Source: a virus
Taxonomy: Duplodnaviria > Caudoviricetes
DNA: 64,000 nucleotides
Strand: one strand, 5' to 3'
Virus record (IMG/VR): IMGVR_UViG_3300047561_001367
Location: 1 to 64,000 of that record
Made by a program: the position numbers and the translations under genes. The notes beneath the pieces were generated by a model, which saw nothing but the letters and a program-made list of their open reading frames with translations, was not told the DNA's origin and did no database searches. This document shows, piece by piece, positions 26,701 to 56,926 of this stretch (the stretch's first letter is position 1; each line of letters opens with the position of its first letter).

Positions 26701-28628
26701 AAACAATTAGTGATATAAAAAATTTCACGTCTCGCCCAACAGTTAATGGAACTGGGGTTTTATTGAGTGGTGACGCAAATAGAGTCGGTAGAATTCAATA
26801 CATACAGAATAGTACAAATGTAACACTAAACTGTGAAACCTACGATACATTCGTAGTTCAAGTAAGTGAACCAACCGCATTTACATACGCTAATTTCCAA
26901 GAAGGACAATCAATAAACATATATTTAGTTTCTGATCATAATGGGCATGTGCAACACACATTCCCCACCAATACGACTTTTGCGGAACTTGGAGATGCTA
27001 ATATAATATATTCTTTTGAGAATTATACTACAAGAATTTTACTACAAAAAATTGGGGAGGAAATCATTAATTTTTCTTCTATAAATCTTACTCCGGACGG
27101 TCTATTTAATTTTCCGGCCTATCATACTATGACAGTTGACTTTACAATTACTGATATAATTGTAGACGTTGAGGACGGTGCTTATTCGCTTTATCCAACA
27201 TTTGATCCAGCTATTAAAAATTATTGCGCACAAACACCAAACTCAATTAACGATCAAATTTCCCCATGGTCAATTACAGTAAATGGTGAGAAACAATCTA
27301 GTAATGTAAATAATTTTTTACGTGCAAATGATCTTGTAAAAGTTATAGATGGTACAAATTCATATTTTATTAGATTCCTTCCTTCCGATGTTAGTTATAT
27401 AACTCCTGATACTCCAGCTACTGGTAATTATCATGAAGGGTATTATCAAGCGGCTTTTTATGGGGCGTCAAATTATTACTATATTTTTGATAAAAATGGT
27501 GTTCCACTTTGGTATTATACGGATGGAACTAGCCCATTAAGTTTACATAGGGGCAATGATAAAAATAGAGTGGTAACAAATCCATGGGTAAATGAAACAA
27601 GAGGAATTTTAGAAATTAAAAATAAATATATTACAGGTACTTATTATAATCCAGTGAATGATTCTGATGGTAATCCCGTAGATGGTATATATATGTGGGA
27701 TAATCACGAAGCGCAAGAACTGGTTGGTCCGCCAAGTCGTCGTGGAAATTTTATTGCAGCAGGATATGTTGATGATGGTTTTTATTTCCAAGAGCAAAAT
27801 GCCGCTGGCGAACTTGTGTGGGATTGGTATAGTATTGAAGCTTTTTCAAATACAAATGCCGAAGCGTATCATATAAATTCAGTTGACGTACACCCAATAA
27901 ATGGCGATATTATTTGTAGCGTAAGGCATACTAGTAGTATTATATGTATCGATTATGCTACTAAAAATGTAAAATGGGTATTACAGGGCGATAACACTCC
28001 TTATGGAAGTCCGTTACAAAATTTTGCGCAAGGAAGCAGAACAGCTAATACAAAATGGATTGATGGAGAGAATATTATCGGAGAGCCAGAGTATAATGGC
28101 GAACAATACAATGGAACCTGCACTCAGCACGATGCCAGATATCATATGGATATACTCCCAGTTTATGATTCTAGCCATGTAGTAATTTCAGTATTTGATG
28201 ATCAATCAGGTGGTCATTCGTATTCTCGTGGGGTTATATATGAAATAGATGAAAATACTGGAACCGCATATCATAGATTTTCTACATTTTCTGATGATGA
28301 AAATAGTCCAACTGTAGCACAATCACCATTTATGGGATCATATACCGTATTAAAAGAAAGCGATAATAGTTATTCGCATGTAATAACTCTTGTCCAAAAT
28401 AATATATCTGTATTAGAATATCATGGATCTCTAATTCCAGTAAATAATTATAATACAGCGGATAAGGTTCTTACTTTTGATACCTCTGGTTTTACTAATG
28501 CAATTTATAGGTTTATTAAAGTACCATTAACGCATTTTAATATAAATAATCTTAGAAATACCGCTGGATTACCATTAAATACAGAAGTTAATGGTACATA
28601 TGAAAATTTCGCTGTAGATACAGTATAG
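23703..28628 (+). CDS. mosaic fibre protein with PA14-like and arylsulfotransferase (ASST)-like domains
   Basis: GKVGIGT..P..KLEV.G fibre motif; SWEW.GYF.P....H.F...AD.....WIG (PA14-like); DNHE, HINSV, S.RH and QHDAR (ASST-like). Confidence 0.75.
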   Translation: MSDDITIQVELENQDVYIDVIQEGGNGGNIDTSAFYLKSNPSGFITGVDLSNFYTNDNPSGFITGVDLSNYNLLYTTGNQIKSGRLIIGNDAISIVDPNSQYTLSLQTNSPATWLEILNNSGANKGVFFGIDTNDFEQYNWQGGDIKFFTSENPSDGTVRLTIKNDGKVGIGTSYPSEKLEVAGNIKVSNTGFFVGVIKTDSIVSIQNNINLGAYYFNSGEGTYRPPFNTGEIVFVNHFSGSSYYNPDLFGSSAQEEIIIVEGIIDTNEEIRMDPYYTGIFPCKWSDLNGIYVKTSVAVTPSITEPSWLSGLGMHNPESGTFNYYFKSDLDTELDGISYFLAPGNKAGWGPDPDEDALTDTAVNYWRLCSLADYPSIFFTNPSTDPYTFPLEGWVPVDPGATPPENQGSEYLSNYDGGFEVSSSTYSPSGSYALYINTFNSNAENNYEGLSVLTGADVIFSLEQNGYRAVYKTNSGSFNYADFGVGIIFHDMTYGYSQPLTLIKGAGVEFTSGDPVYVILGSGNQANNFSITSGNAIFGGNLQSNTATFIDGIKVKNYIEGGGYGELSQNLTDGLLGIQYSGYFDNDPQWFKTAAVKPIINEIILTGSSESEFNGIYTRAGSIEENQGGYNYQGDNGAILTYYSLTPTNESYWYLNLNFSYNPLNSKFISYDLETWGQNPDGPYGSVPPTTTITQTQNFENTTNFGVGRALANGTSWEWVGYFKPKNTANHTFDIYADENAYFWIGNKALDGYTTGNADIFSAAYIQGQITGLSLTSGVNYPVRIQWGHPANPTALGLALSYNDGINGTNNFSGVFFHGLNKNGFYLDGVSGNAYFVGNVQANSATFNVRPTVNGTGVLLSGEATSLPDTIVYTTGNQIINGEKNFNDGIIISSQEGGYAKYTTPFDPGGDAYFRFEAGYGGGPKGLNIHPGSQYISFDNGGPTLQLDGQSMVLQYGDGILLLNAEQSTISNNFSSYKLKSGVNGYIPIDYEVVYNTGNQTISDIKNFTSRPTVNGTGVLLSGDANRVGRIQYIQNSTNVTLNCETYDTFVVQVSEPTAFTYANFQEGQSINIYLVSDHNGHVQHTFPTNTTFAELGDANIIYSFENYTTRILLQKIGEEIINFSSINLTPDGLFNFPAYHTMTVDFTITDIIVDVEDGAYSLYPTFDPAIKNYCAQTPNSINDQISPWSITVNGEKQSSNVNNFLRANDLVKVIDGTNSYFIRFLPSDVSYITPDTPATGNYHEGYYQAAFYGASNYYYIFDKNGVPLWYYTDGTSPLSLHRGNDKNRVVTNPWVNETRGILEIKNKYITGTYYNPVNDSDGNPVDGIYMWDNHEAQELVGPPSRRGNFIAAGYVDDGFYFQEQNAAGELVWDWYSIEAFSNTNAEAYHINSVDVHPINGDIICSVRHTSSIICIDYATKNVKWVLQGDNTPYGSPLQNFAQGSRTANTKWIDGENIIGEPEYNGEQYNGTCTQHDARYHMDILPVYDSSHVVISVFDDQSGGHSYSRGVIYEIDENTGTAYHRFSTFSDDENSPTVAQSPFMGSYTVLKESDNSYSHVITLVQNNISVLEYHGSLIPVNNYNTADKVLTFDTSGFTNAIYRFIKVPLTHFNINNLRNTAGLPLNTEVNGTYENFAVDTV
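23819..23902 (+). repeat. 54-bp-period coding repeat (NPSGFITGVDLSN)
   Basis: TAACCCTAGCGGATTTATTACGGGCGTAGA at 23819 and 23873. Confidence 0.9.
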
Positions 28629-30042: not shown

Positions 30043-31971
30043 ATGTTTACAGACTTTAAAGATTCATCGACAAATGATTTTGCAATAACCGCAAATGGTA
30101 ACGCGCAACTTGTTAAAGGGGTTAAAAAATATGGCAATGCAGCTGGTTATTTTGATGGTAGTGGGGATTATTTAATAATAGAAAATCCGTCACAAAATTT
30201 AATTAATTGGTTTGAATCTGACTTTACAATTGAAACATGGGTTTATTTAGATTCTACCCCAACAGATACGGTAAGTCAAAGTTCTCCAATGATCGGAAAT
30301 GGTAACCCATTCAGTAGCGAAGAATACTTCTCTTTTGGGGTAACCCATTCATTAAGCGTTAAATTTAAATATTGGAATGGTAGCGAACAAGGATTCGCAA
30401 CTTCACCTTCAATTATTAGTATTGGGCAATGGTATCATATAGCATTTGTAAAAAATGGAACAAATTTAAAAATTTATATAGATGGGGTTGAAATGACTTC
30501 TAGTGAATTAGTTGGTACTCCAATCGTATCAGATGGGGTTCCATTCGTTATTGGAGGGCTTTGTACGGGATATTTTAATGGTCGCATAGAGGATTTAAGA
30601 ATCACAAAAGGTATCGCAAGATATACCGCAAATTTCACACCACCAACCCAACAATTACCAGACCCATCCGATCCACATGGCGCGAATGTTTCTTTACTCC
30701 TGCATATGGACGGCACGAATGGATCGCAAAGTTTTGTAGATAGTTCTAATAATAATTTGACTATTACGGTGAATGGTGACGCGCAAATTAGTACGGCAGA
30801 AAAGAAATTTGGAAATGGTTCTGCATATTTTCGTGGGAATAGTGCCCCAGGGGATGCTTTAATATTAAATGGTAGTTCTAAATTTGCTTTTGGTACGGAT
30901 GATTTTACTATAGAATTTTGGGCTTATGTTATTTCGTATGATGGCAATATATACGAGTCTAGAGGGTTGGATGAAGAGGGAGATAGGGCAACTATTTATG
31001 TCAATTCCAATAATTTTATCTTTTATGACGCTGGGAATCGAATCGTAAGTGATTCTAAAAATACATACCAATGGTATCACGTAGCAGTATCTAGAAGTTC
31101 TGGCGTCACAAGACTTTTTATTGATGGAGTTCAAGAGGGGGCAAATTATTCCGACTCAACGGATTATGGTATTGGATCAAATAGACCTTTTATCGGTGGG
31201 TATAATGAAACAGCGAGTGATGGTTGGTTTAACGGCTACATCGACGACCTAAGAATCACTAAAGGAGTCGCAAGATACACCGCAAATTTCATCCCACAAA
31301 CTGCGGCATTTGCAAATCCAATACCAGTAATACCCCTTCCAATACCATCTAATGGCCTAATGGCATGGTTTAAAGCAGACGTTGGAGTGTCAGAGTCTGG
31401 CGGGACTATAACTGAATGGGCAGATCAATCAGGTAATGATAATAATGCAACCGCAGTTGGTCAGCCAACTTTATTAAATAATGAATTAAATGGAAAACCA
31501 GTGATTGGTTTTGATGGCGTTAATGATTGTATGACTTTCAGCTTAAATACTCCTATAAGCCTAGGATCTGCAAGAACATTTATTATAGTTTATAAATATA
31601 ATACAATGACAGGTCAAACGGTGGTATTTGATGCGGAAAACACAAAAGCTTGTATATTTCAGTCTAATAGTGACCTTTATTACAATGATAGTTCGCAAAT
31701 GGGTCCTTTAAGTGGTGATTTTATTACTAATTATTTTATTGAAACTATAACGGTTGATACTGATGGATCAGCAACGTTAAGAATAAATGGCGTAGATGAA
31801 ATTACTGAAAATATGAACAATCCAGAATTGACAAATTTTATTATTGCAGCAAGAAACGCGCTATCACCAACTCAGCATGGCGATTGTAATATTTCAGAAG
31901 TGATTATATACAATAGAAAATTATCAACACAAGAAATAGAAACAATAGAGCTATATGCAAATATACCATAA
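30043..31971 (+). CDS. multi-LamG/ConA-like domain virion protein
   Basis: Two DFTIE.W...WYH.A...G.IDDLRITKG.ARY domains plus a third W.DQSG.....ISEVIIYNR domain. Confidence 0.85.
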   Translation: MFTDFKDSSTNDFAITANGNAQLVKGVKKYGNAAGYFDGSGDYLIIENPSQNLINWFESDFTIETWVYLDSTPTDTVSQSSPMIGNGNPFSSEEYFSFGVTHSLSVKFKYWNGSEQGFATSPSIISIGQWYHIAFVKNGTNLKIYIDGVEMTSSELVGTPIVSDGVPFVIGGLCTGYFNGRIEDLRITKGIARYTANFTPPTQQLPDPSDPHGANVSLLLHMDGTNGSQSFVDSSNNNLTITVNGDAQISTAEKKFGNGSAYFRGNSAPGDALILNGSSKFAFGTDDFTIEFWAYVISYDGNIYESRGLDEEGDRATIYVNSNNFIFYDAGNRIVSDSKNTYQWYHVAVSRSSGVTRLFIDGVQEGANYSDSTDYGIGSNRPFIGGYNETASDGWFNGYIDDLRITKGVARYTANFIPQTAAFANPIPVIPLPIPSNGLMAWFKADVGVSESGGTITEWADQSGNDNNATAVGQPTLLNNELNGKPVIGFDGVNDCMTFSLNTPISLGSARTFIIVYKYNTMTGQTVVFDAENTKACIFQSNSDLYYNDSSQMGPLSGDFITNYFIETITVDTDGSATLRINGVDEITENMNNPELTNFIIAARNALSPTQHGDCNISEVIIYNRKLSTQEIETIELYANIP

Positions 31972-43730: not shown

Positions 43731-44849
43731 ATGAGCAGAAATAGAATCATTTACAACGTTTTAGCGCTTTACTCGAGTCAAGTTCTTCCTAGTGGGATGC
43801 AGACAGGGGTTGGCACAATTAAGCAATTAACTCGCGTGCAATCTTTTGATGAAGATTTTACCAGAAATCTTACTGACGTTAATCAGTTCGGAAATTTAGC
43901 TGCTATTGATCGTATCGAAGTTCAAGCCCCTACTGTAAATGGTTCGCTTTCTTATTACGTTACGGATGGCAGTAATGAAAAATTCCTAGGTCTGACAGTC
44001 GGCCCTAGCGGTGGCGAAGCTGCAGATTTGACTTCTTGTATCTCGGGTATTCTTAATAAAAGTACTGATGAAAAAAATTACTATCTCCTCATCGCTGATG
44101 AAGGTAACGACGCTAGTAATTACAATACCGCAAATGTTAATGGCGGTATGGCTCAAAGTGGCGTAATCGGACTTGGTAATGGATTTATGACTTCTTATAG
44201 CGTAAAAGGCGCTGTTGGTGAAATTCCAACCGCTTCGGTTGATTTAGAAGCTCTTAACGTAAGAGTTTATGCTGACGTTGACGGTGGCGATGATGTTCCA
44301 GCGGTTAACCCTGTAAACGGCCTTCCAATTACTAGCGCACAATTCCGGTTGCCAATGGCAGCTACAAATGTTGATGGTGATCAAGTTTCGGCTTTACAAC
44401 CTGGTGACATTGAATTTACTTTGGATGGTGTTGTAGGTTACGATGAAACAAACTTAAAAGTTCAAGACTTCACATTATCTTTCGACTTGAAGCGCACGCC
44501 TTTACAAAAACTTGGTAGTAAATTTGCATTCTCTCGTGAAATTGACTTCCCAGTAACAGCAAAGCTTGATGTTAATGCAGAAGTTGGAGATTTACAAGAT
44601 GGTAACTTAGCAGATCTTCTTTGCGGTGGAACCACTTACAACTTCACAATCACAATGAAGAAACCAGATTGTAATGGTGCCGGAACGCCATCTATCGCAT
44701 ACGTTTTCAAGGGCGCAAAATTGATTTCTCAGAAATTCAGTTCGGCTATCGGAAATAATGCCAATATGAGTGCTTCTTATGAAGTTCAGTTGGGTAGCCC
44801 ACAGGACAATGTTAAGGGCATCTTTATCTCCGGATCTTACGTTGATTGA
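43731..44849 (+). CDS. major tail tube protein
   Basis: L.RVQS......R..V.QFG, Q.FTLS.DL.R..L..LG; synteny before chaperones and TMP. Confidence 0.8.
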   Translation: MSRNRIIYNVLALYSSQVLPSGMQTGVGTIKQLTRVQSFDEDFTRNLTDVNQFGNLAAIDRIEVQAPTVNGSLSYYVTDGSNEKFLGLTVGPSGGEAADLTSCISGILNKSTDEKNYYLLIADEGNDASNYNTANVNGGMAQSGVIGLGNGFMTSYSVKGAVGEIPTASVDLEALNVRVYADVDGGDDVPAVNPVNGLPITSAQFRLPMAATNVDGDQVSALQPGDIEFTLDGVVGYDETNLKVQDFTLSFDLKRTPLQKLGSKFAFSREIDFPVTAKLDVNAEVGDLQDGNLADLLCGGTTYNFTITMKKPDCNGAGTPSIAYVFKGAKLISQKFSSAIGNNANMSASYEVQLGSPQDNVKGIFISGSYVD

Positions 44850-45353
44850 AACTCAAACGGGCCTGCGGCGGCCAGCGAGTGGTCGCAAGCAGTAACGTAT
44901 AATCCTGGAAATAGGGTTTGGGCTGAAGGGCGCATTTTTGAAGCTACTAGTCAGAACTCCTCTTATCCGTTTTATATTCATATAAATGATCCCGATTATA
45001 TTGTAAATCAAAGGAATAATTGGACTTATATAGGTCAGTTCAATAATAGGCCTAGTTTTGGACGTTTTAGATATATTTGGAAGCATGACCCATCAACTTC
45101 ATCGTCATTAGATTTAGAGGGTTATGTAGATGAATTACAAAATAATTTTCATACAGATGCTGAGGGTCCTGGGTTTACACTACGGAGCACATTAAAGTAT
45201 ATCACTGGTCAAAATAAATGGTATGTTGCGTGCGTTCCTAATCATCTTTTGAATACATGTGGTCCTGATACTATCCATGATAATAATCAATATATTACTC
45301 ATATAAGAGTTAACTCGGGTTGGCAACTAATAGGTTCTGGTAATAAGTTATAA
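44850..45353 (+). CDS. in-frame read-through extension of the tail tube protein (167 aa; CBM5/12-like N-terminus)
   Basis: The same frame stays open for 167 codons after the TGA with no in-frame ATG/GTG; EWSQAVTYNPGNRVWAEGRIFEA...W motif. Confidence 0.75.
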   Translation, partial: NSNGPAAASEWSQAVTYNPGNRVWAEGRIFEATSQNSSYPFYIHINDPDYIVNQRNNWTYIGQFNNRPSFGRFRYIWKHDPSTSSSLDLEGYVDELQNNFHTDAEGPGFTLRSTLKYITGQNKWYVACVPNHLLNTCGPDTIHDNNQYITHIRVNSGWQLIGSGNKL

Positions 45354-45414
45354 GTGGCCTAATTAAATTTTTCAGTGTAAGTTAGTTTAAGGTAAAAGGA
45401 TAGTAAAGGATAAT

Positions 45415-45639
45415 ATGGATATAGATCTCAATAAATTTGTAAGCGGTCTTATTGCTAGAGATGTAAAAAAATTATATCTTTCTTTTCTTTATCTTCTTGA
45501 AGATTTAAAAAATGAGGATAAAATTACCGAAGAAGAATTCCAACGTCTTCGCAAGCGCGTGCTTGACTACGGAAATAATTGTTATAGAAATATAGACGAA
45601 CAATTAAATAGTTTTGATTTCACATTAACTCAAAAATAA
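45415..45639 (+). CDS. hypothetical protein (74 aa)
   Basis: ORF track; GTGTAA motif and AAGGA upstream. Confidence 0.75.
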   Translation: MDIDLNKFVSGLIARDVKKLYLSFLYLLEDLKNEDKITEEEFQRLRKRVLDYGNNCYRNIDEQLNSFDFTLTQK

Positions 45640-45650
45640 TATATATACAT

Positions 45651-46478
45651 ATGGATAAAAATACAAAAAATTGGTTGTACGAATTTGAAGCTAAAACCGA
45701 ATCTGGTGAAGTTAAAAAGTTTGCAGTTTTAAAAGCCAATCGGCGCATGAGGGAAGATGGCGAGTTATTTTATTCGAGTGAGGTCTCTAGATTTGCAAAA
45801 GCAGGTGTTTTACCAAAAGCGGCTTGGAATACAATCTTATCAGATGGCGGCGGAAGTATCAGTGAGAAAGACCGCGAACTATATGGAAATTTATTGATGG
45901 ATTTTCGTGATAAGTCTTTTGATTTACAGGCTATTTTAATTAAAAACGTTTCGGAAAGAAGTGAGGATGAGCAGCTTCGTAGCACGAAATTAATCGAGGA
46001 ACTTGAGGCTATCAAGCAAGAAATCCAAGGGTTTGAAGCTTCACAAATTTCTATTTTTGAGAATACGGCTGAGTCTAAAGCTAGAAATCGCGCCATCTTG
46101 TGGTGGGTTATGAATCTTGCCTATAAAAAAGAGGGTGAGACTTATGAACTATTATTTGATGGAAATAGTTTTAATGATAAATTAGATCTTTATGATTCCC
46201 TTGAGGAAGATGCTACTAAACATGCGTTCTTACTCGGGGTGTTAAGGAGAATTACTTATTTAATTACCCTTTGGTTCTTAGGTCGTGCTGAAAATACAGA
46301 GGATATGAAATCTTTTGATGACATGTTCTTAAAAGACAATGATTTGGGTTCAGAAGAAACTTCTACAGAAACTAAAACACCAGTTGTTGAGGAAAAAGTT
46401 ACAGTGACCGAGACTGTTGTTGAAAAGATTGAAGCGGTTGCTACCGAGACAGTCGCTCAGGACACTCCAGCCGCATAA
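45651..46478 (+). CDS. tail assembly chaperone candidate
   Basis: Acidic helical protein between tube and TMP. Confidence 0.55.
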   Translation: MDKNTKNWLYEFEAKTESGEVKKFAVLKANRRMREDGELFYSSEVSRFAKAGVLPKAAWNTILSDGGGSISEKDRELYGNLLMDFRDKSFDLQAILIKNVSERSEDEQLRSTKLIEELEAIKQEIQGFEASQISIFENTAESKARNRAILWWVMNLAYKKEGETYELLFDGNSFNDKLDLYDSLEEDATKHAFLLGVLRRITYLITLWFLGRAENTEDMKSFDDMFLKDNDLGSEETSTETKTPVVEEKVTVTETVVEKIEAVATETVAQDTPAA

Positions 46479-46481
46479 CAT

Positions 46482-47519
46482 GTGGAGAATAAAAAGCAGT
46501 TTAATTTTGGTAGAATTTATAATGAAGTAGCGGATGGTTGCTCTGAGAAAATTATAAATAAATATCGGGTTTATTTTAAGCACCCTACGGTCTCTGAAAA
46601 TTTTACAATTTACGCTAGGTATGATAATATTTTAGCAGAGGCCAAATTAAAGGGACTATTAACCCAAGAAGAGAAGATTAATGAGGCTATAGAGGGTGGT
46701 TGGTGGACAAAAGATAAAGAACGTGAAATTTATATTTTACGTAAATCTGTTGCAAATTTAATTAAAACCCGTTCTAAACTGATAATACCCTCTCAAAAAA
46801 ATGCTATTAATACTCAAATTAAACGTAATGAGTCTATACTTTTAACATTAATAAAAGAAAGGCAGGAGTTTCTTAATTATACAGCTGAAGAGTATGTTAA
46901 TAGTCGATTTGTTGATGAAATGATTATTTATTATTCTTATAAAGATAAATCTTTAAAGGAAAAGTTGTTTGAAAATTTAGATGAGTATTTTGATATAGCA
47001 GATGAAATTTCTGAAAAAATTCGAACTGTTTATAACACATACGATACCGAGTTGGGTGATAAAAATGTGCGTATGGTTGCCGCATCCGGATTTTTTCAAA
47101 ACATGATTTATTTAGGGGATACTTGTGTAGATTTTTGGGGGCAACCAGTTAATAAATGTAGTAAATATCAAATAGATTTATTAGTGTATGGAAAGATTTA
47201 TAAAAATGTAATTAAAAATCGTTCAGAAAATGGTGAGCCAGTAAGAGATGAGATATTGAGTGATCCAGAATTATTTCTTAATTGGATGGAAGATGAGAGT
47301 AATAAATCTAAAGCTGGTAATTCAAATAGTAATTCAAAATATAATTTTGATAAGGGTAATAATGCTGTTACAAGTTATGTGGGAGCGAGTGCCGACGATT
47401 TAGAAAAAATGGGTGTTAAAGTCGAAAAAATAAAAGGTAAGAGTCTATTGGATTTAGCTAGAGAGAAAGGTGGTACTTTAGAAAAAAGTGATTATTTGAA
47501 AGTCAGAGAAAATTTATAA
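46482..47519 (+). CDS. second tail assembly chaperone candidate
   Basis: Immediately precedes the TMP. Confidence 0.5.
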   Translation: MENKKQFNFGRIYNEVADGCSEKIINKYRVYFKHPTVSENFTIYARYDNILAEAKLKGLLTQEEKINEAIEGGWWTKDKEREIYILRKSVANLIKTRSKLIIPSQKNAINTQIKRNESILLTLIKERQEFLNYTAEEYVNSRFVDEMIIYYSYKDKSLKEKLFENLDEYFDIADEISEKIRTVYNTYDTELGDKNVRMVAASGFFQNMIYLGDTCVDFWGQPVNKCSKYQIDLLVYGKIYKNVIKNRSENGEPVRDEILSDPELFLNWMEDESNKSKAGNSNSNSKYNFDKGNNAVTSYVGASADDLEKMGVKVEKIKGKSLLDLAREKGGTLEKSDYLKVRENL

Positions 47520-47560: not shown

Positions 47561-50500
47561 ATGGCTAATATTGATATCACCATAGGCGGAAATACACGGC
47601 AACTGGAAAAAGATATCCAGAATACCGTTAATAAATCATATAACATTAATTTAACGACAAAGGGCGATCAACCCCTTGGTCGTATTACTGGAAAAGTAAA
47701 CGAATTTACAAAATCGTTAGACGCTTCTAATGCTCGTGTTATTGCGTTCGGAGCTAGTGCTGGAGTTATTTATGGAATACAAAGGGCTTTTGATTCTTTA
47801 GTATCTTCCACAATTGAAGTTCAAAAATCTTTACAAGATATTAACGTTATTTTAAACGTTTCTACTAGTCAAATAAATAAATTTGGATCTGAACTTTTTA
47901 ACATAGCTAAAAATACTGGGCAAAGTTTTCAAGAAGTTGCCAAAGCTGCTACTGAATTTTCAAGACAGGGGTTGGGTGTTGAGGAAACTTTAAAAAGAAC
48001 AAGTCAAGCCCTAATTTTATCACGTTTAAGCGGACTGGATGCAGCAAAAAGTGTTGAAGCCTTAACGGCTGCCGTAAACTCTTTTGCTTCACAAGCCGTT
48101 ACTGCATCTGAAGTTGTTAATAAATTTGCAAATGTTGACGCTGCATTCGCAGTTAGTTCTGGCGATCTTGCGGAAGCTATTAGCCGCGTTGGTAGTAGTG
48201 CTGCACAATCTGGCGTTAGTTTAAATGAACTTATTGCTATTGTAACTTCTGCGCAGCAAACTACCGCGCGCGGTGGCGCTGTTATTGGTAACTCTTTTAA
48301 AACAATATTTACAAGATTACAACGCGGCAAGGTAGTAGACTTGTTAGGCAGTTTGGGTGTTGGAGATACTGACAGTCAAGGTAAAGTTAAATCTACAATT
48401 CAATTACTACAAGATTTAGCTAAAGTTTACGATACGCTCGGGCGCGGTCAACAGTCAGATGTGGCAGAAAAAGTCGGTGGCGTATTTCAAATTAACATTT
48501 TAAAAGCAGCTCTTGCTGATTTAGGTAAAGAATATTCTGTTTATAATAGCGCATTAAGAACTGCTGCATCGTCTACAGACCAAGCTATTTCAAGAAATGA
48601 GGCGTTGAATAAAACTTACGCAGCGCAATTAAATACCCTTAGTCAAAATGCTAAACAATTATCTGCAAATGTTGGGCAACGAGTTTTAGGTCCGACTTTT
48701 GATAGAGTCGTTGGCGGTGCAAATGATCTTCTTGGTGGCGTTAATGAAAGTGATGGTCAAGGTGTTGGAGCTACTCTTGCCAAAGGAATTCTTGATGGAA
48801 TAGGTAAAACTATTGCTGGCCCAGGATTGGCTTTAATTGGTGGCGTTCTTATTAAATTAATCGGTGACTTTAGTAAATTTGCTGCTGGTAGCGTAAAAGA
48901 ATTATTGGGTTTAAATACCGCTACTAAACAACAGGCTGATTTACAAAAGAGTGTTAATGATATTTTATCTAAGAATCCAGCGTTAATTGAATTGGCGCTT
49001 AAAGGAGAACAGGGCTTAGCAAGCGCGGCAGAAGTTTTATTATCTAATTTAAGAGCGCAAACTGTAGAGTTAGAAAAACAACAGCAAATTTCTGCTAAAC
49101 TTGCACAACAATTTTATGGCGCTGGAGTTCGTGTTACAGGTGGTGTTCCAACTGCTCCGCCAGCGCCAAAAGCCAAAGGTAAAGCGGCTGGATATATTCC
49201 GAATTTTGTTTCAGATGCAATTGCAGAAAAATATACAGCGATTTCTTTGGGTGCCACTTCTACTGTTCGTCCACATATGTCGGAAGGTACAATTGGTGGG
49301 CGGAAGTTCGTAATGAATGACCAAGAAACCGAATATCCAGGAGTGGGTCGTAATGGGGATTCAATGGTCATTCCACATTATGCTGCAAGAGGGTTCGTTC
49401 CTAATTTTGCACCAGCTAATATTAAAGCAATCAGAGAGGGGAATATATTTGAAAAACAGATAAATAAAATTTTATTTGGAATCGAATCAGATGCTGGTAG
49501 TAGGGCATTAGACTTTTTACCATCAAATTCTATTGGGTCATTACCAAGTGAAATTAAAAAAAGTTTAAATATTAGTCCAGCCTCTAGATATGGAGATGCA
49601 AAAAGAACGGAAAGTAAATCTAGCCAGGCGAATTTCGTCTCTAAAGTTCTTAGACAATTTCCGAATATACTTAATAATAGAGAACCTGATAAAAATAATT
49701 TTATTGACCTTAGCAATGCCCCAGAACTGAGTGGGTTAGCCATGTTATTTATTAATGAGGGTACTGATAAAAAGAGTTTTGCTTATTTGGGAACTGGAGG
49801 CCCTAATAAAGTAGCGCAAGGGAAAGGCTCTAATTATGGACAAAAAACTGGAAAAATTTTTCAACAAAATAAGGCTATAGCAAATAATAAAAGAAATGTT
49901 ACGATAAAAGTTCCATATTTATCAGATAAAATAGATGTATCTAAATTGCCAAGCTTGGAAAGTGGTAAAAGGTCGTATGCATCTAAATTTAAGAAATCAT
50001 TTGCATCTGGCTTCATTCCGAATTTTGCAACCACTGGTACTGGATCTGTAATTGATCTAGGAGATATAGCGGCGGGTAGCCCAATATTAAAAGGAAAAAT
50101 TGCGTCATTAATTTATCCAGGTGAGTCTAGCGGTATTCAAAAGGTACCTGTAAAATCTGTATATAGAGGTCAAGCTTTTAAAGGTCTTCTGCCGACTGCT
50201 GGCATTAATAAAGGCGAATTAAAACAGGGTATTAATATACCTAATGTTGAGGATGACGTAGAGCAGATGCTTTTAAATCAGGCTAATAATTTTGGCCAAG
50301 TACTTTCAAGTAGCGGTATACCAATGAGTGCGCTTGTAAAGGGCGAGTTGCCGAACACTGGCGCGGTAAAAGGCGCGGCAGGAGTTGCATTTGAAGGCGC
50401 GGTAAAAAGTGTTGTAAATAAAAGCTTACAGTCTACATCTCAAAATGCTAATATAGACTTTGCAAGTCCAAGTACTAAATTAAGAAGTATTTTTAATAAA

Positions 50501-53500
50501 GCTCCAGGCGTATATGACGCTAAATATACAACGGGATTAGCAGATGATGTTTTAGCTAAACTTTTAAGATTCGCGCAACCAGCCGTTGCCGGAGTCACAA
50601 AACAAGTGACGAGCGGTCCTGGATTTAAAGAGTATCAAGCTAAACGTCAAGCCGCTTTAGATGAGATTAAAAAAAGCGGGGTAACTGGATCCGTAAATAT
50701 TAAAAAAGCTTTAAGAGGTAAAGGTTTTGCGCGGGGTTTTATTCCAAATTTTTCTGCCTTACAAGACGCAGTAGCTCGTGAACAAGGGGCTGGAATTCCT
50801 AAGAGTCAAATTTATATTGCACAACATTCGCGTCTAGCAGCGGCAGGCTATAATCCATTAGGTCTTGGAGTATTTAACAAAATTGATGAACCTACAAGCG
50901 CAGCAAGAGACGGTGCAGTAAAAAAACGCGGTTATGCTGGCGGATTTATTCCAAATTTCGCAGACGAGGGTGCGCAAACTCCTAGTTTTACACAGGGTGT
51001 TTTGGCCGTTGGCACCCAATTAACTACTTTAGCTTTTATATTAGGCGCAAGAAGAGCTGATATAAATAAATCTTTAATAGATATAGCTAGAGCAAATAGG
51101 GACCAAGCGAAATCTAAAATTAAAGCGTTAAAAGAGGAATTGAATGCAAAAGTTCAAGTTGATTCTGGACTAAGAACTGCTGGCATTAACCCAGGCGTGT
51201 TAATGACCGAAAAATCTGCAAATTCACCTGAACGTCAAAGAGGTTTACAAGCACAAATTGATGCTTTAAAAAGTGGAAAGGGTAGATTTGGGCCAAGCAC
51301 GGGTCAACGCTTTATGGCAAGTGTTGGCGGTGGTCAAGGACTGGCAAATATAGGTATGTTTGCAGCTCCTATAATAGCTGAAACTATAAAAAATCAAATA
51401 CCACAAGATACAAAAGGTGGTCGTGTTGGAGCGTCAGTTGTTAGTGGTTTAGGGCAAACGGCTAGTATGGCTGGAACTGGATTTATGTTAGGTGGACCTA
51501 TGGGGGCTGTTGTTGGTGGACTTGTAGGTGCGGGTATAGCGTTCACGGATGTTATCAATCAGGCTAGTAGCGCATTACCCGAGTTGACTGCAGCAGCAGA
51601 AAAAGCTGGTCAAGCATTGAGTAGATCTAACGATCAATCCCAACAAATACGCGCTGGAATTGGTCAAATAAAAGAACTTCGTAACGCTGGAAATTTCAAA
51701 GACGCCGCTAAACAACAGTTGAATTTAGAACAGTTGATACGTGAGATGGAACTCGGCCCAGGAGTTAATCGTACAGATGCGTTAGCGGCAATTAAACAGT
51801 TAGATTTCGCTGGTTTAGAACAGGCTCTACAAAAAAATACTGATGCATTAACAAGACAGGGCACGAGTACTGGTAATATTGAAAGTATTACAAAACTTAT
51901 TGAAGGTGGGAAGGGTAAAGAAGCTGGCACAAAACTTTTTCAAATTGGGCAACGTGAAGCAGCTGGGTCTGGCAAAGAATTAAGCGCTAAAGATTATGAT
52001 AAATCTATAAGAGACATAATTAATGTTTTTAGAAAAGTTAAATCTAATGTAGAAGTAAGTCAATCAGAGTTTGAAAAACTCCCTGGATTTAGTAAAGAAT
52101 TGATAAATCAAATTGCTGATGGATCTATAGATGCAGGCCAACTTACTGACATTTTACAGGGTTTATTGGGTGCGGCTGGGGACGCAAGAAAAGAGGCTGC
52201 CGAAATTGCAAAAAGATTAGGAAAGGGAAATCCGCCACTTCAAAAATTAATTGAAAGTTTTACAACTGCCCAATCTAATATAGCTAAATTTGCACAACAA
52301 GCCGCTATTACAACCGCTCTACAAAGTGAATTAAATAATGCGATTTCTACAGCTAAAGATGCAATCCTCCAAAATGATTTAGAAAATAAATCTGAAATCT
52401 TTGGAAAAGATCTTTTAAATAATCCAAAATTAGCGCAACAGTTCGGATTAGATGCTGGTTTAAATAAAATTAAAGGGCCGGAAAATAATGATAGTGTTAT
52501 TAAAGCTCAAACTGCCCTTAGTGATTATGTAAAAAACACTATAACAAATAATTTATCAGCACAAGCCGGTGGTATATCATTATCTGGAAAAGATAGTAAT
52601 ACCCCTATTAACGATACTCTTGCAGCTGTTACGAGTTTACAAGATGTAATACAAAAATTAATTAATACGACTAGCGGTAATAATATTCAATTAAATAATG
52701 TTGGTTTAAATCCTGATGAACGTTCTACACAAATAATTGATGAAATTAAAAAATTAACTGGAAACGAAGTTTCGACGGAAGATCAGGCAAAAATTCGTGA
52801 GTTAAATCAGCAACTTGTACGAGAAACTGTAATAGGGAATACTATTCAAAGACAACAATTAAGAGTTCTAGCGCAAAACAGTATACAAAATTTAGTAAAA
52901 CAATTTGTTACAGCTACTCAAAATGCATTTGGTGGTAAAGAGGGGTTTGTAGGTGGCAATTTAGAATTATTTGATAATTTAGATCAAGCTGTGGCTGATT
53001 TCAATAATCTTCAAAATGTATCTGATAACCCATTAAAAATAGAGCAGGGTCGTGCAAGTACTACAATATTAGACGAATTAAGTAAGTTAATTGGGCGTGA
53101 CGTAACGGGTTCGCTAAGTCCAGATAACATGTTAGTTAAATCTGCAACGCAAGGTCAAGCCCTTGACTTGCAAGCAAATATTGAAGAAATGCTATCCACT
53201 ATCACAAAACTTCCTGGTGGCGGTGAAGATTTAAAAGGTACAATAGTTAGCTTATTGCGTGAGCAAAGTGGGGCTGGGACGAATAATATACAAGATATCG
53301 CACAGCAAATGGCTAAAACGCGGGTTGGTGGTCAACAAGCAAATAATGGTTTATTAGAGGACCTTAGAAGAAATGCAATAGCTAATTTAGAAGATCTAAA
53401 TAAAAGGGAAGGTAGCAAGGGTAAATATGATGAAATCATAAAGATGGCTAAAGAAAATCCATCTGGCATATTTAATGATACCCAAAGTTTAATTGCTAGT

Positions 53501-56500
53501 GAAACTTCAAGACAAACGGGTATTCTAGAACAGATATTAAATGCAATTAATAATAAAGGAGGGCTTACTGGTGAGACTCAAAAAACAACATCTGATACTA
53601 CAAATACACAGTCAGAATCTACTGATAGAAAGATTAAAGTAAGGCCGGTTCCAGAAAATTCATCCTATACCACTATGTCTTCCGGCTTTGTTCCTTCATT
53701 CGCCAAAGAAGCTCGTGATATTAAAAAGGGTATTGGCGGCGCGCTTGCTAGTGACAGAGCTAAATTCATTCCGAATTTAAACGGCAAACCAGCCGTGATT
53801 AATAGCGGCGAAAAATTAATTCCTAATTTTGCTAATACTGGACAAACAGCCGTATTAACCAGAAACATGCAGAAGATGATGAATATGGCCGGTGGCTTTA
53901 TTCCGAATTTTGCAACAGGTTCTGCCAAAGATGAAAAACAATTACAAGAAGCGTTACTTAGAGCGGCTGGAGTAAACTCCCTTGTTCAAAAAAATCTTGG
54001 GCTAGGATTTGAGAACCCATTAGGGGCAGCTGGAGAAATACCTAGCGTGGAAAGATTTAATGCAAATGATCCTAATAATAAAAACTATAGGGCTTTTACT
54101 GAAATTTACGGACGTTCCGCTAAAGTTTCATTCAAAGCTGGCGCTGTAGGGGTAGGAACAATATCTAATGAGGCTACAGCATTAACACAAAATTTACTAC
54201 CGACCACTAATAATCCAAGCAAATTAAGTGAAAATCTTAGTCAATCGAGTGAAATGAATAGGGCGGTTGGAATTCGTGGAACTAATAAGGACAGTTTAGC
54301 AAAAGCTCAAAAAGAATATCGGAAAAGATTAGAAAAATATGCAGATAAAATTGTTGCATTAAATGAGAAAGCTGGTAAACCATTTGCGAAAACAGAAAAT
54401 CTTAAACTTTCTGGAATGGAAGGTTATGATAAAAGAGCGTTCGGTGTAAATGATGCAAGTAGGGGTATTATAACGTCAGAATTTGTTAAATCGAATTCGA
54501 GAGATTATAGTATTGAAAGATTAAGTACTCTAAATTCAATGCTATTTGAGGGGATACAGAGGGGAGGGATTACTGCTGAAGATCTTATATCCCAAGGAAT
54601 CGCTAAAAATAAAGACGAGTCAGATTACATGATAAGAGAAATTGAAAAAATTTCAAATCTTACTTCTACACCTACGCCGAAGCCTACGGCTACGCCAAAG
54701 CCTAAGCCCGCACCTGCGCCTACTCCCACGGCTACGCCAAAGCCGGTTCCTACCGCAACACCTAAACCCGCGTCACCATCTCCATTACCACCGCCAACAA
54801 ACACACCTACATCTACCCCATTAATACCTAAAAATTTACCAATTGGTGCGACGCCATTTTCTAGAGCCTCCATTCTAACAAATTTTAGGGACAACCCAAT
54901 AGAAAATCCAGGTAATATAAACCGTATGGTAACAGATAAAAATGGCAGACTTGTGGGTTATTCACGTCAATTAGTTGATGGAAAAGCTATGGCTAAAGCT
55001 GGTAAAAGCGTATCTGAAATAGAAAAAGCAACAAGAATGGCTAGAGACGCGGCTCGTGCGGCAAATAGTCCATATCAATTAATTGGTGGACAAAATAATC
55101 GCCCAGGGGTACAAATTAATAAAACAACTGGTATGTCTAATTACGTTCCAAAGGCGGTTTTAAATGATAAAAAAACTACTGGAGATTTATCACAAAGAAT
55201 TACTGATTTAAAGAATCAACGCAGTCAAGCTAGCCAACCATCACAAATATCAAGACGTTTAGATGGAGTTATTACTCCTGGAGTTAGTTTCGAGAGAGTA
55301 GGGCGGGATGTTTATAGAGATACGGCAACAGGTGCATTAACTAGTAATCGTCAAATGTCTGCGGGTAAAGTAACGACTTCTGCTATGCGCGAAGCCCAAG
55401 CTCGCCAAGACGAGATGAATAAAAGGGCAAATTATTCTACAGGATTTATTCCAAATTTTGTTAATGCTGCTGACTATAATAAGCAAAGAATAACTCAGAT
55501 GACTCCAGATAAAGATGGGTTAGTTCCCAACTCTCCATTTTCAAAAATAGCTAGAAAATATTACGATAGAAATTTACTTCAAAAAAATATTGGTTTTAGT
55601 GAATTTGAGACACTTTATGGTAGGGCTAACGGGATTGGAGAGGGTAATGGATTGGGTATCGGTCCTGATTCATATTTAACAACAGCTAGTGTTGCAAAGG
55701 GCACCCCAAAATCAAGAAAACTTCCGATGGCTATTCAAATGGCGCTTTTTAATAGAGCGGCCTCGCCAATTTCAGAATATACTAGCCTGTTTGATAACAC
55801 TACAATTAAAACTGGTGGTGGCAGAGGTATTCCAGCCGCTAATTATACAAATGTCGAAAAAGAGGGTAGAATTTCATCTTATAGAAATGGGCGTTTGATG
55901 TCTGTTCAACGGCCATCTAATGAAAGCTATGTGACAGAGGGAACTACGGATGATACTATAGCAAAAAATATCGGCAAAGGAATAACTCAATATTTTGGAT
56001 CAAAAGACGCACAATTGGGTGGCTTGGGAAGTTACAAGGGTAGAAGAGAAGTCCAAGGAAATACAACTTCATTATACGATAAAAGTGATAAACTTATTGG
56101 TACTGCATATAGTCTTGTAGGTGGGGAGGCAATGAGACAAGCTGGTAAGAGTATATCCCAAATAGAAGCCGCGACTAGAGCGGTCAGACAAACGAATGAG
56201 CAAAAACCTGGCGGCACTGGGGAAATATATCATGTAGGACCAAAAGCTGGTGAACGTACAGAAGCACAAAAAAATAAAGATGCCGGAATTAACCCAGTTA
56301 GTGCTCCTAGTTTAGATTCCATGCCAGATAAGGAAAAAATTAAGCCAGCATATGCACACGGTTTTATTCCAAATTTTGCTAAAAATTTTGATGGCAAATC
56401 ATTCTTACGCGCGGCAAAAGAGGCGGCTAACGCAGAAATTCAGCAAACAGGTGGTACCGCAAGACCAGCACTTGGATTTGATAAAGGCAATCCAAATAAA

Positions 56501-56926
56501 CCATTTATTTATAATAAAAATAATCAAACAGAAAGTTCTGCCCCAAATGATCACGGTGGTTATGATAAAGGAGTTATGGAATCAAAACGCAATCGTGGGT
56601 CGAGTTCTTCAAAAACTGGTATGATTGCAAATATGGGTTATGGTGGAAAAAATGCTTACTCTACCTCTAGTCCTACATTTAATATTAATTTCAGTCCACA
56701 AACAACTAATAACCATTCACAAGGATTTGTTCCAAATTTTGCGAATAATGATAAAGTAAACTATGAAGAATTGATTGGTAAGATGAAAAAAGATATGGAA
56801 AAACGTTGGTCGGAGGCTCAGAATACTATAGCACCAATGCAAAAAACACTAGATAATGCCCAAAGAAATAAAATTATTCCAGGGGCAGTTCCAAAAATTT
56901 ACGGACCTAAATTAGCAATAACATAA
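47561..56926 (+). CDS. tail tape measure protein (3121 aa)
   Basis: TP901-type core (EFSRQG, LAEAISRVGS.A...GVS..EL, IGNSFKTIFTR); length; synteny. Confidence 0.93.
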   Translation: MANIDITIGGNTRQLEKDIQNTVNKSYNINLTTKGDQPLGRITGKVNEFTKSLDASNARVIAFGASAGVIYGIQRAFDSLVSSTIEVQKSLQDINVILNVSTSQINKFGSELFNIAKNTGQSFQEVAKAATEFSRQGLGVEETLKRTSQALILSRLSGLDAAKSVEALTAAVNSFASQAVTASEVVNKFANVDAAFAVSSGDLAEAISRVGSSAAQSGVSLNELIAIVTSAQQTTARGGAVIGNSFKTIFTRLQRGKVVDLLGSLGVGDTDSQGKVKSTIQLLQDLAKVYDTLGRGQQSDVAEKVGGVFQINILKAALADLGKEYSVYNSALRTAASSTDQAISRNEALNKTYAAQLNTLSQNAKQLSANVGQRVLGPTFDRVVGGANDLLGGVNESDGQGVGATLAKGILDGIGKTIAGPGLALIGGVLIKLIGDFSKFAAGSVKELLGLNTATKQQADLQKSVNDILSKNPALIELALKGEQGLASAAEVLLSNLRAQTVELEKQQQISAKLAQQFYGAGVRVTGGVPTAPPAPKAKGKAAGYIPNFVSDAIAEKYTAISLGATSTVRPHMSEGTIGGRKFVMNDQETEYPGVGRNGDSMVIPHYAARGFVPNFAPANIKAIREGNIFEKQINKILFGIESDAGSRALDFLPSNSIGSLPSEIKKSLNISPASRYGDAKRTESKSSQANFVSKVLRQFPNILNNREPDKNNFIDLSNAPELSGLAMLFINEGTDKKSFAYLGTGGPNKVAQGKGSNYGQKTGKIFQQNKAIANNKRNVTIKVPYLSDKIDVSKLPSLESGKRSYASKFKKSFASGFIPNFATTGTGSVIDLGDIAAGSPILKGKIASLIYPGESSGIQKVPVKSVYRGQAFKGLLPTAGINKGELKQGINIPNVEDDVEQMLLNQANNFGQVLSSSGIPMSALVKGELPNTGAVKGAAGVAFEGAVKSVVNKSLQSTSQNANIDFASPSTKLRSIFNKAPGVYDAKYTTGLADDVLAKLLRFAQPAVAGVTKQVTSGPGFKEYQAKRQAALDEIKKSGVTGSVNIKKALRGKGFARGFIPNFSALQDAVAREQGAGIPKSQIYIAQHSRLAAAGYNPLGLGVFNKIDEPTSAARDGAVKKRGYAGGFIPNFADEGAQTPSFTQGVLAVGTQLTTLAFILGARRADINKSLIDIARANRDQAKSKIKALKEELNAKVQVDSGLRTAGINPGVLMTEKSANSPERQRGLQAQIDALKSGKGRFGPSTGQRFMASVGGGQGLANIGMFAAPIIAETIKNQIPQDTKGGRVGASVVSGLGQTASMAGTGFMLGGPMGAVVGGLVGAGIAFTDVINQASSALPELTAAAEKAGQALSRSNDQSQQIRAGIGQIKELRNAGNFKDAAKQQLNLEQLIREMELGPGVNRTDALAAIKQLDFAGLEQALQKNTDALTRQGTSTGNIESITKLIEGGKGKEAGTKLFQIGQREAAGSGKELSAKDYDKSIRDIINVFRKVKSNVEVSQSEFEKLPGFSKELINQIADGSIDAGQLTDILQGLLGAAGDARKEAAEIAKRLGKGNPPLQKLIESFTTAQSNIAKFAQQAAITTALQSELNNAISTAKDAILQNDLENKSEIFGKDLLNNPKLAQQFGLDAGLNKIKGPENNDSVIKAQTALSDYVKNTITNNLSAQAGGISLSGKDSNTPINDTLAAVTSLQDVIQKLINTTSGNNIQLNNVGLNPDERSTQIIDEIKKLTGNEVSTEDQAKIRELNQQLVRETVIGNTIQRQQLRVLAQNSIQNLVKQFVTATQNAFGGKEGFVGGNLELFDNLDQAVADFNNLQNVSDNPLKIEQGRASTTILDELSKLIGRDVTGSLSPDNMLVKSATQGQALDLQANIEEMLSTITKLPGGGEDLKGTIVSLLREQSGAGTNNIQDIAQQMAKTRVGGQQANNGLLEDLRRNAIANLEDLNKREGSKGKYDEIIKMAKENPSGIFNDTQSLIASETSRQTGILEQILNAINNKGGLTGETQKTTSDTTNTQSESTDRKIKVRPVPENSSYTTMSSGFVPSFAKEARDIKKGIGGALASDRAKFIPNLNGKPAVINSGEKLIPNFANTGQTAVLTRNMQKMMNMAGGFIPNFATGSAKDEKQLQEALLRAAGVNSLVQKNLGLGFENPLGAAGEIPSVERFNANDPNNKNYRAFTEIYGRSAKVSFKAGAVGVGTISNEATALTQNLLPTTNNPSKLSENLSQSSEMNRAVGIRGTNKDSLAKAQKEYRKRLEKYADKIVALNEKAGKPFAKTENLKLSGMEGYDKRAFGVNDASRGIITSEFVKSNSRDYSIERLSTLNSMLFEGIQRGGITAEDLISQGIAKNKDESDYMIREIEKISNLTSTPTPKPTATPKPKPAPAPTPTATPKPVPTATPKPASPSPLPPPTNTPTSTPLIPKNLPIGATPFSRASILTNFRDNPIENPGNINRMVTDKNGRLVGYSRQLVDGKAMAKAGKSVSEIEKATRMARDAARAANSPYQLIGGQNNRPGVQINKTTGMSNYVPKAVLNDKKTTGDLSQRITDLKNQRSQASQPSQISRRLDGVITPGVSFERVGRDVYRDTATGALTSNRQMSAGKVTTSAMREAQARQDEMNKRANYSTGFIPNFVNAADYNKQRITQMTPDKDGLVPNSPFSKIARKYYDRNLLQKNIGFSEFETLYGRANGIGEGNGLGIGPDSYLTTASVAKGTPKSRKLPMAIQMALFNRAASPISEYTSLFDNTTIKTGGGRGIPAANYTNVEKEGRISSYRNGRLMSVQRPSNESYVTEGTTDDTIAKNIGKGITQYFGSKDAQLGGLGSYKGRREVQGNTTSLYDKSDKLIGTAYSLVGGEAMRQAGKSISQIEAATRAVRQTNEQKPGGTGEIYHVGPKAGERTEAQKNKDAGINPVSAPSLDSMPDKEKIKPAYAHGFIPNFAKNFDGKSFLRAAKEAANAEIQQTGGTARPALGFDKGNPNKPFIYNKNNQTESSAPNDHGGYDKGVMESKRNRGSSSSKTGMIANMGYGGKNAYSTSSPTFNINFSPQTTNNHSQGFVPNFANNDKVNYEELIGKMKKDMEKRWSEAQNTIAPMQKTLDNAQRNKIIPGAVPKIYGPKLAIT
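54661..54825 (+). repeat. Pro/Thr-rich low-complexity linker in TMP
   Basis: TPTPKPTATPKPKPAPAPTPTATPKP... Confidence 0.85.

Follow-up and report, generated by a model that had tools for sequence, protein, structure and literature searches.

How is a reading frame of 167 codons used when it lies directly behind the stop codon of a major structural gene, in the same frame, and offers no start codon over most of its length? This question is raised by the first 64,000 nucleotides (nt), hereafter the window, of the phage genome IMGVR_UViG_3300047561_001367 (Caudoviricetes), in which the gene for the predicted tail tube protein ends in TGA and such a frame, the extension, follows. Judged by its sequence, the extension is a coding, startless, in-frame module that is kept behind a stop codon in several lineages. 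The reading that we prefer, with a probability of roughly 60%, is that low-level basal or context-driven read-through of the UGA makes a sparse 540-amino acid (aa) fusion of the tube protein with a carbohydrate-binding module (CBM). The elements on which this reading depends are the following:

43731..44846, plus strand: major tail (tube) protein of 372 aa with a T5 pb6-like duplicated tube domain, assigned from an AlphaFold2 (AF2) model compared by Foldseek and from gene order
44847..44849, plus strand: TGA, the proposed leaky stop, at the ancestral stop position (the relatives have TAA at the same residue position) and followed by A
44850..44876, plus strand: linker, codons 1–9 of the extension (NSNGPAAAS), without a start codon; the haplotypes differ here by a whole-codon insertion or deletion (indel) and by mostly synonymous changes
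44863..44892, plus strand: GC-rich hairpin, 13 nt past the stop; −18.1 kcal/mol, z −2.7, its strength not conserved
44877..44972, plus strand: CBM5/12-like N-terminal half, codons 10–41 (EW...WAEGRIFE...YPF), identified by phmmer and a sub-threshold Pfam match and near-identical in 5/5 haplotypes
44973..45317, plus strand: variable middle, codons 42–156; type-B haplotypes have a shorter, unrelated segment in its place
45318..45350, plus strand: putative C-terminal strand GWQLIGSGNKL, the last 11 codons, kept in all haplotypes and in the protein P0003 (NWKFIA)
45351..45353, plus strand: TAA that closes the extension, kept in all haplotypes

The original prediction, made from the letters of the window, had stated that after GTT GAT TGA (44847–44849) the frame remains open for 167 codons up to the TAA at 45351–45353 and that it is startless. 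Both statements were confirmed, the earliest ATG, GTG or TTG of the extension being a TTG at codon 134. According to our own estimate, which takes ~7% of codons to be stops in this AT-rich DNA, 167 open codons would arise by chance with a probability of ~5e-6. The codon-usage score of the extension in frame 0 is 0.225 (0.32 ± 0.08 for the phage genes) and is positive in each third (0.19–0.24), and the other five frames score negative. The extension fills a gap of 565 nt between genes; all other gaps in the plus-strand gene block measure at most 122 nt, apart from one at 58–60 kb that is a product of the non-overlap filter, which dropped a 519-aa open reading frame (ORF). The gap is filled, as had been proposed; the downstream sequence described as a promoter motif occurs once in the window, and nothing points to a promoter. 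The stops of the block comprise 30 TAA, 7 TAG and 5 TGA; the original prediction had noted that most other structural genes end in TAA. Three of the other four TGA stops belong to ATGA overlaps and the fourth ends a doubtful 58-aa ORF; the tube TGA is the only one in the block that is neither. When all other pairs of neighbouring in-frame ORFs in the 125-kb genome were considered, the downstream member had a start 2–4 codons past the stop, with a sole exception on the minus strand at ~17.4–18.1 kb (a TGA followed by a startless frame of 106 codons), which was dismissed as a second candidate since it is antisense to, and lies within, a 654-aa gene (16318–18282).

The TGA was confirmed at the contig level, in the source assembly and in others: it is present in contigs of two other studies, X3 (which covers the whole stretch) and X4 (up to 44971), as well as in the ENA/Logan contigs L024, L042, L043 and L044. 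No second copy or template repeat of the extension, of the kind used by a diversity-generating retroelement, was found in the genome.

Comparison with relatives revealed what the extension has replaced. A tube homologue (47–82% aa identity) in the same gene order is present at 23 IMG/VR loci, 19 of them distinct. All 23 carry TAA at the residue position of the window's TGA and none has the extension. In each of the 19 distinct loci, an intrinsic terminator, formed by a GC-rich stem of 7–11 base pairs (bp) and T6–9, lies within ~60 nt of the TAA (in L002 it is clear in the alignment only). This terminator mostly reads (A/C)GGGCACC...GGTGCCC plus T7–9 (L001–L022), and downstream of it come a conserved motif and a 74-aa gene. 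A terminator scan of the window from the tube gene to the next gene found none. Since the relatives have a terminator at this site and the window does not, the extension is a cassette of ~470–500 bp in place of the terminator. The ends of the cassette (ACGGGC at the 5′ end, within 44850–44870, and GTGGCC plus a T-run at the 3′ end, within 45354–45374) look like the terminator stem of the relatives split in two, and this resemblance hints at an insertion into the terminator hairpin. The loss of the terminator should increase transcription into the chaperone and tape-measure genes.

Further copies of the cassette were gathered by exhaustive HMMER searches, exact-protein look-ups, one metagenome scan and contig alignment. 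With the window's own copy, they make up five distinct haplotypes of the junction, drawn from freshwater assemblies that are independent of each other:

Window (also X3 and X4, from two other studies): tube end ...SGSYVD, then TGA, then NSNGPAAASEW; 167 codons
L024: tube end ...SGSYNN, then TGA, then NSNGPAAAEW; 166 codons
L044: tube end ...SGSFA, then TGA, then TPNGPVAASEW; 168 codons
L042/L043: tube end ...SGSFAAA, then TGA, then TPNGPAAAEW; 136 codons
L026/L040/L041: tube end ...SGSFA, then TAA, then IADGPAAAEW; 134 codons

In 5/5 haplotypes the extension is in the tube frame and open, for 134–168 codons. At least five indel events were counted, and all differences in length amount to whole codons. 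The ratio of non-synonymous to synonymous substitution rates (dN/dS) for all haplotype pairs is 0.19–0.58 over the whole extension and 0.11–0.49 over the first 45 codons. Between the window and L024, the synonymous and non-synonymous codon changes stand at 11:10 in frame 0, versus 5:17 and 2:21 in the other frames; codons 1–28 contain 6 synonymous versus 2 non-synonymous changes together with a clean codon indel. This frame-0 substitution pattern indicates that the region directly past the stop is read in the tube frame, upstream of every candidate start except the GTG of L044. A frameshift of the SPP1 type was rejected, the extension being in the zero frame in all five haplotypes. Two other forms of recoding were also set aside: stop-hopping (bypassing), rejected by inspection because the codons that flank the stop match in L024 only (AAT/AAC), and a double frameshift, judged unnecessary, the −1 frame closing at 44893.

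A plain fusion of tube and module in relatives, which the original prediction had named as evidence against it, was not encountered in these searches. When the extension was compared with 1.84 billion cluster representatives, only the proteins P0001–P0003 matched and no fused protein was seen; likewise, no fused tube-plus-module protein was present among the proteins of 297–945 aa in a set of 5.8 billion. In IMG/VR, no relative of the extension was found by single sequence, by alignment or by the 17-mer ACGGGCCTGCGGCGGCC; seven matches to this 17-mer were discarded as chance, located in phages of 63–75% GC.

As regards the upstream gene, the AF2 model, built with 18 homologues, has a predicted template modelling (TM) score of 0.68 and a mean predicted local distance difference test (pLDDT) value of 66. 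Foldseek matched it to DT57C, T5 pb6, P74-26 and SH-Ab15497 (E 1e-9 to 6e-8, probability 1.0), with TM scores of 0.47–0.51 over 384–434 columns, the full length of the tube protein. According to this model, the product of 43731–44849 is a duplicated-domain, pb6-like tail tube protein; fold and gene order together bear out the identity that had been proposed for it. In T5 pb6, residues 1–374 build the tube and the C-terminal immunoglobulin (Ig)-like domain faces outward (PMC8718954). The extension begins at the position equivalent to the start of this Ig-like domain. A C-terminal addition would be topologically sound, given a pb6-like tube and the outward orientation of the C-terminal domain of pb6.

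The nature of the module was addressed by protein comparisons. Residues 6–35 of the extension match three Pfam-verified CBM_5_12 repeats of P0002, an M4 peptidase with a type IX secretion system tag, with a phmmer E of 2.1e-4 over 1.84 billion proteins and BLASTP values of 2e-5 to 8e-5 (44–46% identity over 25–29 residues). The repeats themselves match Pfam CBM_5_12 with E 5e-19, and the pattern that they share with the extension is EW..(T/S)Y..G(N/D)RV...G..FE.T. When the first 57 residues were searched against Pfam, CBM_5_12 was the sole hit, at 15.2 bits for the window and 17.0 for L026 versus a cut-off of 26.2 (E 0.006–0.02, covering profile positions 1–27/30 of 44). The neighbours in a protein atlas are viral CBM5/12 clusters at 0.82–0.84, which we regard as a lead only. 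The CBM5/12 pattern that had been noted therefore does resemble verified repeats but does not reach the Pfam threshold, and we retain it as a weakly supported assignment. The match comprises the ~30 initial residues and a short C-terminal strand; for the 115 residues between them AF2 gave no confident model. An AF2 model of the extension (mean pLDDT 37) was too poor for a fold search, although it contains strands of moderate confidence at residues 16–43 and 152–163. The repeats of P0002 end in GWIFI, four residues past their FELT motif, and this ending resembles the GWQLIGSGNKL of the extension, which is probably the closing strand of the CBM-like fold. In contrast with the verified repeats, which it follows in its EW...FE.T pattern, the module would then be a CBM5/12-like fold split by an insert of 85–115 residues, the two halves presumably forming one fold. 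The X4 assembly branches at 44971–44975 and rejoins at 45320, which are the edges of the insert that differs between types A and B.

Codons 10–41 are the stretch common to P0003 and P0005, in which the module is translated within ordinary ORFs, and from this we conclude that the first 40 codons belong to the domain. The module of the cassette consists of linker and domain, without the 42-residue head and the start of P0003. P0003 (L025:606-1244) is a 212-aa version of the module on a short contig. P0005 (L045:8001-10814) is a Big_2 protein of 937 aa that begins with the CBM-like module, insert included; its gene stands in a row of genes for 940–1247 aa, one of which encodes RCC1/WD40-like repeats, and the freshwater contig concerned measures 39 kb.

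The stop codon itself differs between loci with and without the cassette: TGA is present in 4/5 cassette haplotypes versus 0/19 distinct cassette-free relatives (hypergeometric probability ~5e-4, uncorrected for shared ancestry). The base after every junction stop is A (UGA-A in four haplotypes, UAA-A in one). In the tube tree, one group unites the window and L042 with L001, L002 and L017, which lack the cassette, and L026 falls in another well-supported clade; the carriers are thus scattered, with at least two changes forced. L024 and L026 share ~98% identity over the initial 100 nt of the cassette and ~70% in their tube genes. The scattered distribution and the near-identical 5′ end indicate that recombination transfers the cassette as one unit, in most cases together with the TGA.

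According to the reading based on read-through, most ribosomes would stop at the UGA and release the 372-aa tube protein, and a small share would decode it, most likely with Trp-tRNA, to give the 540-aa tube–CBM fusion. The fusion would co-assemble into the tube with the module facing outward, at the position of the Ig-like domain of pb6. From the 3121-aa tape measure we estimate a tail of ~450 nm and a few hundred tube subunits, for a pb6-like trimer and on the basis of 1.5 Å per residue and ~4 nm per ring. Read-through at the percent level would thus place several glycan-binding modules on each tail, and even 1% would place a few. In wild-type E. coli, a reporter UGA shows ~2–4% read-through, Trp-tRNA competing with release factor 2 (PMC10570021), and at such a basal rate no special signal would be needed for a low level of the fusion. 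The comparisons establish the anatomy of the locus, the tube fold, a frame that is kept under purifying selection, the association of TGA with the cassette and the lack of a fused form; read-through itself, its level, the inserted residue, the presence of the fusion in virions and carbohydrate binding are what we infer. We also lean, by a small degree, toward the view that read-through has been selected, i.e., that the replacement of TAA by UGA-A serves to place a few swappable glycan-binding domains along a very long tail. The cassette would then comprise stop, linker and domain, and would move between diverged tube genes as a unit.

Several observations weigh against read-through. One haplotype (L026, L040 and L041, from two JGI samples and one Logan run) has TAA in place of TGA; since known bacteria terminate far more tightly at TAA, this haplotype would make the module very rarely or never. 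The constraint on the extension is far weaker than that on the tube gene, where 14/17 of the differences from X3 fall at third positions. L044 has a GTG at codon 6, from which gene callers built a 163-aa protein, and an internal ATG that gene callers also used is present in L024, L026 and L042, at codon 76 to ~87; some lineages may therefore initiate the module separately. A piece exchanged recently is common to the haplotypes, which are therefore not fully independent. UGA-A is leaky in E. coli, but termination fidelity in the host of this phage may differ.

No dedicated stimulator was identified either. The original prediction had attributed read-through to stimulation by an RNA structure, and the hairpin at 44863–44892 is real, with the same sequence in X3 and X4; the outer helix that was proposed to enclose it (CTCAAAC/GTTTGGG) is weak, with a z of −1.3 for the 90-nt context. 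In L024, however, the hairpin reaches only −9.7 kcal/mol (z +0.45), no better than shuffled sequences. Its loop has lost 3 nt, and of two synonymous changes one breaks a G-C pair and the other turns A-U into G-U, none of these differences being compensatory; L026 shares the stem sequence of L024. An Rfam search of 44700–45450 with E up to 10 returned two meaningless eukaryotic hits and no selenocysteine insertion sequence (SECIS), and there is no U-tract at the hairpin. Since the hairpin loses half of its stability in relatives without compensation, and considering the lack of an Rfam match and of a U-tract, a stimulatory role is not supported, although the window's own variant of the hairpin could still contribute. 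The original prediction had suggested that relatives be checked for a conserved TGA and hairpin with variable downstream domains; the TGA (4/5) and a swappable middle part were indeed observed, but the strength of the hairpin was not maintained.

Two alternatives to read-through deserve consideration, both of which we judge unlikely and neither of which we place above the other. In the first, ribosomes begin within the extension or at its head, using a non-canonical codon or re-initiating after termination, and produce a free CBM-like protein. The GTG of L044 and the protein called from it would fit this possibility, as would the internal ATG of L024, L026 and L042, which lies beside a conserved Trp, a conserved ATT at codon 29 that is preceded by GAAGGG, and the fact that the related module of P0003 has its own start. 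None of these candidate starts is conserved across the haplotypes, however, and upstream of codon 134 neither the window nor X3 or X4 offers an ATG, GTG or TTG. Moreover, codons 1–28 appear to be under coding constraint and the CBM-like motif begins at codon 10, upstream of the ATT and of the internal ATGs. A separate product would also leave unexplained why the frame of the tube gene is always kept and why TAA was replaced by TGA.

In the second, the extension is an unexpressed gene fragment that entered the terminator by illegitimate recombination, then spread as the conserved flanks underwent homologous recombination, and has not yet decayed. The resemblance of the cassette ends to the halves of the terminator stem agrees with such an origin, and so do the scattered carriers on the tube tree (with their two or more forced changes), the near-identity of the 5′ 100 nt between diverged lineages, the merely moderate constraint and the existence of the TAA haplotype. 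A fragment without function would nevertheless not be expected to stay open in five haplotypes, including one type of middle (type B, ~85 codons) that is unrelated to the other; by our own estimate, even 134 open codons have a chance probability of ~5e-5. Also at odds with it are indels that are all in frame, a dN/dS below 1 in every pair, a codon usage that is adapted in all thirds, and a module trimmed exactly to linker and domain, from which the 42-residue head of P0003 is absent.

Far less probable is a redefinition of the UGA, whether as selenocysteine directed by the hairpin, by a suppressor tRNA or in a code in which TGA is a sense codon. The loop of the hairpin lies ~25 nt past the UGA and begins with G, in a geometry that is loosely SECIS-like, and some hosts are reported to possess UGA-reading tRNA-Trp variants (PMC13092985). 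Nevertheless, the selenocysteine option that the original prediction had included is contradicted by the TAA haplotype and by the lack of a SECIS match in Rfam, the hairpin is degraded in relatives, and selenocysteine would be useless at a linker position. The 125-kb genome contains no tRNA gene and no other gene with an in-frame TGA, and TGA ends other genes normally, in ATGA overlaps where relatives use TAA or TGA. All three variants were rejected on the grounds of the TAA haplotype, the absence of tRNAs, the normal TGA stops and the single case. Finally, the idea that a plain tube–CBM fusion is disguised by a misassembly, a sequencing error or a private nonsense mutation at the TGA can be dismissed with near certainty, since no point was found in its favour, the stop is present in independent contigs from at least five other assemblies or studies behind four different tube C-termini, it occupies the same position as in all cassette-free relatives, and no fused protein is on record.

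If the UGA is read through, the closest mechanistic counterpart is the A1 protein of Qbeta and the closest functional ones are gp17.1* of SPP1 and the tail proteins of Listeria phages. Stop-codon read-through is textbook knowledge for the RNA phage Qbeta, in which a leaky UGA-A ends the coat protein gene, an in-frame startless extension follows, and the minority A1 form is incorporated into the virion; the essential A1 has been proven by experiment. The locus described here likewise has a UGA-A, proposed to be leaky, at the end of a major structural gene and a startless in-frame extension, and a minority virion form is proposed. Unlike Qbeta, a single-stranded RNA phage with an icosahedral coat, this is a double-stranded DNA tailed phage, the protein is a tail tube, the case is known from sequence alone, and the addition is a swappable CBM-like module that is missing from most relatives.

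In SPP1 gp17.1* and in the long tail forms of Listeria phages A118, A500 and PSA, some subunits carry an outward C-terminal domain as a result of +1 frameshifting (PMC8718954, PMC5009743). The similarity lies in a probably carbohydrate-contacting domain that a fraction of the tube subunits would here, too, acquire through recoding where the gene ends; the difference is that frameshifting leads into another frame, whereas the extension occupies the zero frame behind a stop. The ratio in SPP1 is 3:1, and a far lower share of extended subunits is expected here. T5 pb6, DT57C and P74-26 share the tube fold, and the decoration domain of pb6 follows residue 374, at a C-terminal position that matches that of the extension. 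In pb6, however, this domain is Ig-like and is a plain fusion on every subunit, whereas here it is CBM5/12-like and stands behind a stop. To our knowledge, substoichiometric tail decoration is known only through frameshifting (SPP1 and Listeria phages), T5 and lambda having plain fusions. In the literature that we searched, where absence is not proof, we met no account of a tailed phage whose tail or capsid proteins are extended by stop-codon read-through, and the word "readthrough" does not appear in a review of major tail proteins.

Should read-through at this locus prove true, it would constitute a third route to substoichiometric decoration of virions, beside frameshifting and separate decoration proteins, and a natural example of a fusion whose copy number is tuned by the choice of stop codon. 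It would also mean that gene callers systematically miss startless extensions (here they called nothing, or fragments of 49–163 aa) and that modules for host adhesion on tails are under-annotated in metagenomes. The switch from TAA to TGA that accompanies the cassette would offer a simple genomic signature for screening.

The genome that contains the locus is a single contig of 125,470 bp with 33% GC, of which the window is the first 64 kb; plus-strand genes are densely packed in the window from ~8 kb onward. The sequencing runs that contain the stretch, no RNA run being listed among them, come from freshwater, lake and river metagenomes of 12 studies. These sources, together with a 3121-aa tape measure bearing PF10145, identify the phage as an uncultured siphophage of fresh water whose tail is very long. 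The tube gene sits three genes upstream of the tape-measure gene, in an order that is kept in the 23 relatives, and the region downstream of the extension contains the following features:

45375..45392, plus strand: intergenic motif GTGTAAGTTAGTTTAAGG ahead of the 74-aa gene, conserved in relatives whether or not they carry the cassette
45415..45639, plus strand: conserved 74-aa gene, in the same order in all relatives; no family match
45651-46478: 275-aa gene, the second of the three between tube and tape measure
46482-47519: 345-aa gene, the third of them
47561-56926, plus strand: tape measure, 3121 aa, with PF10145 at residues 116–307

The motif is kept across relatives that are otherwise only ~60–80% identical. 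Neither the tube, the extension nor the neighbouring genes have an above-threshold match in PHROGs or Pfam, and tblastn of tube and extension against 50,697 GenBank phages gave no match. A tape measure of this size is unusual and points to a tail several hundred nm in length; those of relatives have at least 2441 and at least 2877 aa. The start codon of the 74-aa gene is TTG in L024 (588-590) versus ATG in the window (45415-45417). A further contig, L038:1-230 (JGI Ga0114979_10193601), which is too short to reach the tube junction, shows a third, unrelated ORF end (...GNYGYYQ*) upstream of the same motif and a 73-aa gene; the interval from the tube gene to the small gene is a possible hot spot at which various cassettes insert. 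Three putative fibres or adhesins are encoded elsewhere in the window, namely a 1641-aa protein (23703-28628) with PA14/GLEYA, BppL_N and an arylsulfotransferase-like C-terminal domain, a 1141-aa protein (19162-22587) with BppL_N, and a 642-aa protein (30043-31971) with two Laminin_G_3 domains.

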